A stretch of 64,000 nt of DNA from NCBI RefSeq assembly GCF_045037415.1, contig NZ_CP173439.1, one strand, 5' to 3'. The position numbers were made by a program, and so were the translations under genes. Each line of letters begins with the position of its first letter. Position 1 is the stretch's first letter. Below the pieces are notes generated by a model. It made no database searches, was not told where the DNA came from, and saw only the letters and a list, made by a program, of their open reading frames with translations. Below are positions 13,521-13,622 of this stretch, one piece after another. This stretch comes from Escherichia coli (GTDB lineage Bacteria; Pseudomonadota; Gammaproteobacteria; Enterobacterales; Enterobacteriaceae).

Positions 13521-13556
13521 GGGCTGACGCTCAGTGGAACGAAAACTCACGTTAAG
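13521..13556 (+). repeat. Tn3/Tn2-type terminal inverted repeat remnant
   Basis: GGGCTGACGCTCAGTGGAACGAAAACTCACGTTAAG matches the Tn3 IR apart from the outer end. Confidence 0.75.
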
Positions 13557-13585
13557 AGGTTTTGACTATGATAAAAGTCAAAGTA

Positions 13586-13622
13586 GGGGTGAGTTTGGAT
13601 ATGGAAATTATTGTACTATAAG
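13586..13622 (+). repeat. Tn3-family-type IR (copy B, solo, 37 bp)
   Basis: GGGGTGAGTTTGGATATGGAAATTATTGTACTATAAG; same orientation as copy A; no inverted partner seen nearby. Confidence 0.7.

Follow-up and report, generated by a model that had tools for sequence, protein, structure and literature searches.

The DNA examined here, a stretch of 64,000 nucleotides that we refer to as the window, belongs to an IncF Escherichia coli plasmid with a cjrABC-senB module, a hallmark of pUTI89-type virulence plasmids. The module encodes a ChaN-like lipoprotein, a TonB-like protein, a TonB-dependent receptor and TieB/SenB. Its final gene, senB, is the left-hand neighbour of a stack of terminal inverted repeats (IRs) and other mobile-element fragments, whose features are, from left to right:

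12070-13245, + strand: senB / tieB (enterotoxin production-related protein TieB), from the RefSeq annotation of pPA45B and of FDAARGOS_1249 plasmid unnamed2; open reading frame stop at 13245
13451-13482, + strand: IR_C, probable orphan Tn3-family terminal inverted repeat GGGGTTCTAGGCCGGAACCCCAGATTTTTCCG, outer end left; from matches in ~2,700 plasmids and a published IR class
13483-13518, + strand: unassigned AT-rich 36 nt with a small hairpin at 13498-13511
13519-13556, + strand: IR_A, orphan Tn1/2/3-type 38-bp inverted repeat GAGGGCTGACGCTCAGTGGAACGAAAACTCACGTTAAG, outer end left; 36/38 match, none in shuffles, single copy in the window
13557-13585, + strand: 29-nt stub, presumed interior of the IR_A element, with the palindrome TTTGACT-N8-AGTCAAA; from its hairpin and an IR-anchored alignment
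13586-13616, + strand: IR_B, positions 1-32 (one base deleted) of a TnEc1-family IR, tnpA-proximal end, outer end left; from alignment to window copies and tnpA-linked IRs
13617-13622, + strand: TATAAG, 6-nt left-end stub of an IS110/IS1111-family IS (IS1618-like); from identity with pSTEC2018_553-c and a repeated junction
13623-13693, + strand: 71-nt stub of the left terminus (IRL) of an ISKpn19-related IS of the ISKra4 family; from BLAST to the ISKpn19 left end
13694-14046, - strand: IS91-family (IS1294-like) remnant, comprising the end downstream of tnpA and the 3' part of tnpA; from BLAST and the RefSeq pseudogene 'IS91 family transposase, missing N-terminus'
14099-15312: IS3-family element just past the other end of the IS91 remnant; RefSeq IS3-family transposase

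A preliminary description of this DNA had reported two different Tn3-family IRs side by side, between the ChaN/TonB/receptor cluster and IS remnants. The pair is real, with IR_A at 13519-13556 followed by a second IR from 13586, and the site does lie between senB (stop at 13245) and the IS91-family remnant. In fact, three IRs of Tn3-family type start here, at 13451, 13519 and 13586, all with their outer ends to the left; the leftmost, IR_C, a probable Tn3-family IR, shares the orientation of IR_A and IR_B and had been missed, as had two IS ends farther right.

The best-matching plasmid, pPA45B, is 99.7% identical in the senB stretch and collinear with the window only at 6590-14507. The 501 bp around the stack are 99.8-100% identical in pUTI89, pRS218, pSE15, pED1a and hundreds more plasmids, and these records carry no annotated feature at the stack. 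At an identity of at least 99%, the stack is present in ~520 of 72,556 PLSDB plasmids and in 501 of 5,426 complete E. coli genomes, with senB as its neighbour in every one of these carriers. In metagenome contigs, a pattern scan gave 39 loci, and the identical stack is present in 36. We conclude that the stack is inherited vertically with the cjrABC-senB module in IncF plasmids of the pUTI89 type; since it is conserved to the same degree as the flanking DNA, this conservation reflects inheritance and not selection. A paper on an ST1193 plasmid describes the cjrABC-senB region and its IS elements, and these IRs are absent from it. With the stack, the right boundary of the module in pUTI89-type plasmids acquires a marker that is both precise and lineage-specific.

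IR_A matches the 38-bp IR of Tn1/2/3, GGGGTCTGACGCTCAGTGGAACGAAAACTCACGTTAAG, at 36 of 38 positions, and no such match occurred in 100 dinucleotide-preserving shuffles. It had been described as lacking its outer 2 bp; it is full length (13519-13556) and carries a G>A change at position 2 and a T>G change at position 5. The second of these is also present in a Tn3-like IR beside a tnpA 3' stub in pSTEC2018_553-c (locus L013, 6675-6712), and this sharing points to a diverged relative, rather than Tn2 or Tn3 itself, as the probable source of IR_A. The L013 repeat was also considered as the original partner of IR_A and rejected: its neighbouring pentamer is not that of IR_A (TTTTA versus TAATT), and it is followed by colicin genes.

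The spacer between IR_A and IR_B was correctly reported as 29 bp long and palindromic. It folds into a 7-bp stem (13561-13567 with 13576-13582) closed by an 8-nt loop (-4.4 kcal/mol, z = -3.4), and an equally stable fold was obtained in 1 of 200 shuffles. Anchored at the IR, it agrees with the inner flank on the bla side of Tn2/3 at 15 of 29 bases, which is suggestive (shuffle p ~0.01); local alignment of the two gave no significant similarity (p = 0.27). Among the PLSDB plasmids searched, the spacer had no homologue beyond this arrangement.

The 36-nt spacer to the left of IR_A, which starts with ATTGTTTGTTTTCTAACTG..., forms a hairpin of -3.1 kcal/mol (z = -4.75). No homologue was found outside this arrangement at the sensitivity of blastn with word size 11, and similarity between the two spacers was not significant (p = 0.56). 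These 36 nt represent either the inner part of the IR together with some interior of the IR_C element, or else filler of unrelated origin. As neither spacer has a homologue elsewhere, we infer their assignment to the interiors of the IR_A and IR_C elements.

The segment 13586-13622 has no second match in the window when up to 3 mismatches are allowed, and had none in shuffles. It aligns with three further window copies, at 3451-3488 (+), 5787-5824 (-) and 27906-27943 (+), with a likeness limited to the 38-bp repeat. IR_B differs from the TnEc1-type copy B4 by 3 mismatches over positions 1-32, the gap being counted as one. In an IncHI2 Salmonella plasmid (L004), a Tn3-family transposase gene (995 aa) has a stop codon that overlaps an IR of this type, and the 90% identity cluster of the protein includes proteins named 'Tn3-like element TnEc1 family transposase' by NCBI. 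IR_B is accordingly a TnEc1-family IR. The preliminary description had called it a new type; it belongs to a widespread one, present in more than 5,000 Enterobacterales plasmids, and the 'unknown' IR type that occurs four times in the window is accounted for in the same way. The reported 37-bp copy at 13586-13622 does start at 13586, although only 31 nt (13586-13616) are IR. Tn5403, which is annotated nearby in one relative, was rejected as the owner of IR_B, its own IR, GGGGTCGGTTCCGGCTGAGGGCGAAATGACACCCTAAG, being different. A literature search with the IR_B sequence gave no match.

The last six bases of that segment belong to another element. Uninterrupted TnEc1-type IRs end in ...TTGTAC-G(T/G)TAAG (window 3451 and 5787, L004, and the metagenome contig L054 described below), while copies ending in ...TTGTAC-TATAAG continue with GGCTTCCCC... 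into an IS1618-like element (window 27906, Y. pestis pMT1, pR12). The left junction of this IS is identical in four contexts, including window 27937/27938, pMT1 and pR12. In pMT1 and pR12, its right end is followed by the remaining IR bases (GTTAAG / GTTAGG) and then by the tnpA-side flank. The transposase is annotated as IS110-like or of the IS1618 family. These junctions identify a fixed insertion site of an IS110/IS1111-family IS after position 32 of TnEc1-type IRs. The junction of IR positions 1-32 with the IS was found in ~1,800 PLSDB plasmids, in which an IS110/IS1111-type IS thus has the TnEc1-type IR as its target; a description of such target specificity for IS1618-like elements was not found in the accessible literature. 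In pSTEC2018_553-c, the sequence is the same as in the window to 13622 and then runs via GGCTTCCCC... into the IS. With only 6 nt left in the window copy, the assignment of 13617-13622 to an IS rests on this intermediate.

The IS1618-like element follows IR position 32 in every copy inspected: window 27906-28512, L005 6001-7480 (pMT1), L006 15106-16515 (pR12) and L013 3684-4434. The first of these is cut by IS26 at ~28513.

IR_C matches sequences in ~2,700 other plasmids at 30-31 of 32 positions, and these copies lose similarity on the left at the GGGG or no more than two bases from it. The class has sharp left boundaries in three contexts, and likeness ends after nt 32. IR_C is a candidate member of the GCCGGAACCCCAGA class and, by our own count, agrees at 26 of 32 positions with the published Tn3-family IR GGGGATGTAAGCCGGAACCCCAGAAATTTCCGTC; the literature gives this class both as a Tn3-family IR, GGGGATGTAAGCCGGAACCCCAGAAATTTCCGTC..., and as an IR of 34 bp accompanied by 5-bp direct repeats. 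We found no inverted pair of the exact variant and no second copy in the window. IR_C contains a 9-bp hairpin followed by a T-run, which is terminator-like and lies 205 nt past the senB stop; apart from it, the promoter and terminator scan stayed at background level.

The first 21 nt of the IR_C class (GGGGTTCTACGCCGGAACCCC) also occur exactly inside an annotated DinI-like gene of an E. albertii plasmid (NZ_CP099897.1, L008 5174-5194), after which the sequences diverge. On the far side of the module, a truncated replication-initiator pseudogene overlaps at its 3' end with a Tn1000 (gamma-delta)-like IR (window 7538-7575, outer end right), an arrangement that recalls RepFIC::Tn1000 in F. The cjrABC-senB genes would thereby be flanked by two outward-facing Tn3-family ends, this Tn1000-like IR and IR_C.

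The following segment, 13623-13693, is 79.5% identical to the left end of ISKpn19 over 71 nt and 98% identical over 51 nt to a copy in an E. albertii plasmid. ISKpn19 itself is 2,851 bp long, with a 26-nt IR at each end that starts GAGAGCATGAAAAACC. For the end type found here, six unrelated left contexts abut at one identical nucleotide. These matches place the segment, as an IS end, in the ISKra4 family; a search for a second copy in the window found none. Similarity to the IS91/IS1294 end begins in BLAST at 13692-13694. As this junction lacks a canonical GTTC/CTTG target, it is probably a deletion endpoint rather than an insertion.

We propose, with a probability of about 80%, that 13451-14046 consists of orphan left-hand termini stacked by serial nested insertion and subsequent deletion. 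The pile of ~250 bases would represent the dead left-hand ends of six mobile elements that were inserted into one another and then cut away. A Tn3-family element with an IR_C-type end would have inserted ~200 bp past senB, and a Tn1/2/3 relative (IR_A) would have landed ~30 nt inside it. A TnEc1-family transposon, of which IR_B is the tnpA end, would then have entered 29 nt inside IR_A, followed by the site-specific insertion of an IS110/IS1111-family IS after position 32 of IR_B. An ISKpn19-like (ISKra4-family) IS would have landed 6 nt inside the latter, and finally everything rightward would have been lost, so that the 71 nt kept of the ISKra4-type end now border on the IS91-family remnant. 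The arrival of the TnEc1-family transposon and of the IS110/IS1111-family IS is shown by surviving intermediates; the other four steps we infer from fragment identities and breakpoints.

The first intermediate is the 33.9-kb gut-metagenome contig OGLZ01000456.1, of which the analysis covered 5.4 kb (L054). It carries senB, IR_C, IR_A and the 29-nt spacer in the identical order, followed by an uninterrupted 38-bp TnEc1-type IR. Behind this IR lie 150 codons of a tnpA 3' end, with 137 of 150 residues (91%) identical to the TnEc1-family TnpA, and its IR shares with IR_B an unusual G at position 6. The contig is the pre-IS state, a TnEc1-family transposon 29 nt inside IR_A. Its IR differs from IR_B at 3 of 32 positions, whereas the flanks differ by 0.7%; given this disparity, a single ancestral insertion needs an extra assumption, for example conversion from another IR::IS copy. 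The alternative to conversion would be two independent insertions at the identical nucleotide.

The second intermediate is preserved in eight PLSDB plasmids, including pSTEC2018_553-c, which keep the IS1111-type IS inside IR_B. From the senB side through IR_B, up to 13623, pSTEC2018_553-c is 99.3% identical to the window over 2,708 nt. In this plasmid, a further complete TnEc1-related IR (GGGGTCAGTTTGGAGATCGTAAAATTTTGTTCGTTAAG, L013 4434-4471) cuts the IS1111-type element ~720 bp in and forms a fourth Tn3-family left end of the stack.

The senB plasmids of S. boydii, whose 99.4% identity to the window ends at 13449, provide an empty-site-like comparison. In these plasmids, an IS91-like element abuts an IS91 target, GTTC, 2 bp from the IR_C start point (L014 3545-3549 versus window 13445-13449), so two different elements have hit a nearly identical point downstream of senB.

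Nested transposition followed by deletion, as first suggested in the preliminary description, is therefore supported, one step of it directly, by the tnpA behind the IR in the metagenome contig and by the eight IS1111-occupied plasmids. The shared orientation of the two IRs had also been emphasized. It is correct, and extends to IR_C, but carries no information, since every nested element, in either orientation, has a left boundary that runs from GGGG to TAAG. Because all right ends are missing, target-site duplications cannot be checked.

The stubs between successive ends measure 30-36, 29, 0 (inside an IR), 6 and 71 nt, and the IR starts are spaced by 68 and 67 bp. This spacing, together with five junctions that leave stubs of 0-71 nt, is tighter than random nested insertion leads one to expect. 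The short stubs could stem from repeated adjacent deletions by incoming replicative elements or from a preference for AT-rich DNA just inside a Tn3-type IR. If the latter applied, the DNA 15-30 bp inside a Tn3-type IR would be a preferred landing site for heterologous Tn3-family transposons, owing to its AT-rich, bendable character or to weak cross-recognition of the heterologous end, and the stubs would record insertion preference, not trimming. The even spacing of the IR starts fits this account, as do three independent events inside Tn3-type IRs, at +16/17, +27 and +29 nt in unrelated settings, and the AT-rich would-be target pentamers (TTTTA, AAGTA); Tn3 itself reportedly prefers AT-rich sites resembling its own ends (Tu & Cohen 1980). 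However, the scans covered 15-45 nt only and hence give no denominator for other distances, and the reciprocal scan, for a canonical Tn1/2/3 IR 15-45 nt inside a GGGG-N-TAAG IR, returned 0 cases in 241 million metagenome records. IR_C, IR_A and IR_B are, moreover, mutually dissimilar, and the IS1111-, ISKra4- and IS91-type junctions are equally tight despite other transposition chemistries, a pattern that trimming fits better. We regard such targeting as unlikely. If true, it would mean that a resident transposon end attracts foreign Tn3-family transpososomes instead of repelling them, and preferential landing of heterologous Tn3-family elements just inside each other's ends is the one thread of wider interest here.

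One-ended transposition, also raised in the preliminary description, would make each unit of an IR plus ~30 nt a very short product of a transposase acting in trans. Every unit does start exactly at an IR and has a short, variable tail and no partner IR. Yet the metagenome contig has a real tnpA behind the IR at the position of IR_B, so this IR came within a transposon; no 5-bp duplications flank the units; and IR_A with its exact 29-nt tail was found in no other context in PLSDB. A further argument against this reading is length, as one-ended transposition of Tn3, Tn21 and Tn1721 typically yields products in the kilobase range; we consider it hardly credible. Chance resemblance or an assembly artefact is practically excluded by the lack of matches in dinucleotide-preserving shuffles and by the identical sequence in hundreds of independently assembled complete plasmids and 36 metagenome contigs. 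A retained function would require that the orphan IRs bind cognate transposases and confer cis-acting transposition immunity, or that the hairpins terminate senB transcription. Positions 6-38 of IR_A, which include the Tn3 TnpA-binding domain, are intact, and Tn3 immunity needs no more than one IR; the hairpin of IR_C, followed by a T-run, lies 205 nt from the senB stop, and the stack is conserved at 99% identity or more in ~520 plasmids. Against this, the conservation is no higher than that of the flanking DNA, many carriers hold further Tn1/2/3-type IR matches (in 2-8 places per record), IR_B is interrupted and has suffered a deletion, and the S. boydii senB plasmids do without the entire stack, IR_C hairpin included. 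The hairpin and T-run could still act as a senB terminator, and an immunity role of the orphan IRs is conceivable but unsupported; retained function as a whole strikes us as very improbable.

Under the nested-insertion reading, the stack is inert today. No inverted partner for IR_A, IR_C, the ISKra4-type end or any other stack fragment was found in the window, nor any intact Tn3-family transposase lying wholly within it, the largest complete open reading frame being 753 aa. The inverted IR, 5-bp duplication and tnpA that define a functional Tn3-family transposon are lacking for IR_A, IR_B and IR_C. An inverted partner of the second IR had been proposed as something to look for; the sole inverted copy in the window (5787-5824) lies to the left, back to back with IR_B. 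An Rfam search of 13200-14100 detected no RNA family at E values up to 1. The arrangement is not a fixed part of a known transposon end. It is fixed in the plasmid lineage, always in the senB context and without an inverted partner, and represents a scar rather than a working end: unannotated but ordinary mobile-element archaeology, built from known element families and accompanied by two surviving evolutionary intermediates.

Several other elements were observed in the window. Positions 3451-5824 form a 2.37-kb non-autonomous TnEc1-type element with inverted IRs at 3451-3488 (+) and 5787-5824 (-); its cargo consists of genes for an ArsR/SmtB-family regulator and a 552-aa FAD-dependent oxidoreductase, with no transposase. 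Copies of AATGTT in direct orientation border the element, which therefore has the appearance of a genuine transposition product and could be mobilised in trans. An orphan Tn3-family IR, GGGGGCCGCTTGGAATTCGGAAAATAAACCACGTTAAG (Tn21/Tn501-like), is located at 63849-63886 (-), and its 'interior' side resembles plasmid backbone outside Tn5403 in pR12. Furthermore, three 300-nt direct repeats of 90-98% identity (41994-42293, 47417-47716 and 50769-51068) lie in the leading region near ssb / psiB-type genes.

The components of the stack can be compared with several known systems. TnEc1, which is both an ISfinder name and the NCBI name of the transposase family, has the IR carried by IR_B and the three further window copies; in it, the IR and the stop codon of tnpA overlap, a feature shared with other members of the Tn3 family. 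In contrast, IR_B is solitary, interrupted and shortened by one base, without a transposase nearby. IS4321 and IS5075, of the IS1111 family, are reportedly inserted in the 38-bp IRs of Tn21-family transposons. The study of these elements (Partridge & Hall 2003, J Bacteriol 185:6371) is cited in PMC11187229. The IS in the stack resembles them as an IS110/IS1111 element with a DEDD transposase, with a fixed position and a single orientation in a Tn3-family IR, and with subterminal inverted repeats (GGGCTTCCCC / GGGGAAGTCCC here) that leave a few extra bases outside. It differs in that the target is a TnEc1-type IR, after position 32, and the IS is IS1618-like.

Tn6292, a qnrS1-associated Tn3-family remnant with ISKpn19 in tnpA (PMC5027574), likewise combines an IR_C-type sequence, 10 bp past the resolvase stop, with an ISKpn19 left end. 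The copies are others, however (IR 30/32; IS end 79.5%), as is the arrangement, and the stack lacks qnrS1. One-ended products of Tn3-family elements also consist of a single IR and adjacent DNA with no partner, whereas the fragments here have no duplication, have tails of 29-36 nt and include a tnpA-bearing intermediate.

Stacked Tn3-family ends also occur elsewhere. In Serratia sp. M24T3 (NZ_AJHJ01000029.1, L020 4754-4828 (-)), a perfect Tn1/2/3 IR is followed, after a 16-17-nt spacer, by a Tn1000-type IR in the same orientation; the distance is +16 nt as parsed and 17 nt if the Tn1000-type IR starts with GGGGATG. This pair directly follows a terminator, with unrelated AT-rich DNA behind it, and is an independent second instance of stacked orphan Tn3-family ends. 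A Tn1721-type IR with a 989-aa TnpA was found inside the Tn2/Tn3 IR in three loci (L025, rc 2185; L050; L053). Two versions of the sequence left of the outer IR exist, from which it follows that this composite has either moved or arisen on two occasions. Here, a Tn1721-family transposon sits 27 bp inside the bla-side IR of Tn2/Tn3, and, as in the stack, the nested Tn3-family IRs both read GGGG to TAAG. In the Tn1721 composite, however, the inner element is intact, with a TnpA frame of 989 aa that runs into the IR, and natural Tn2/3 sequence forms the outer flank, whereas the stack beside senB consists of stubs only, from three IR types.
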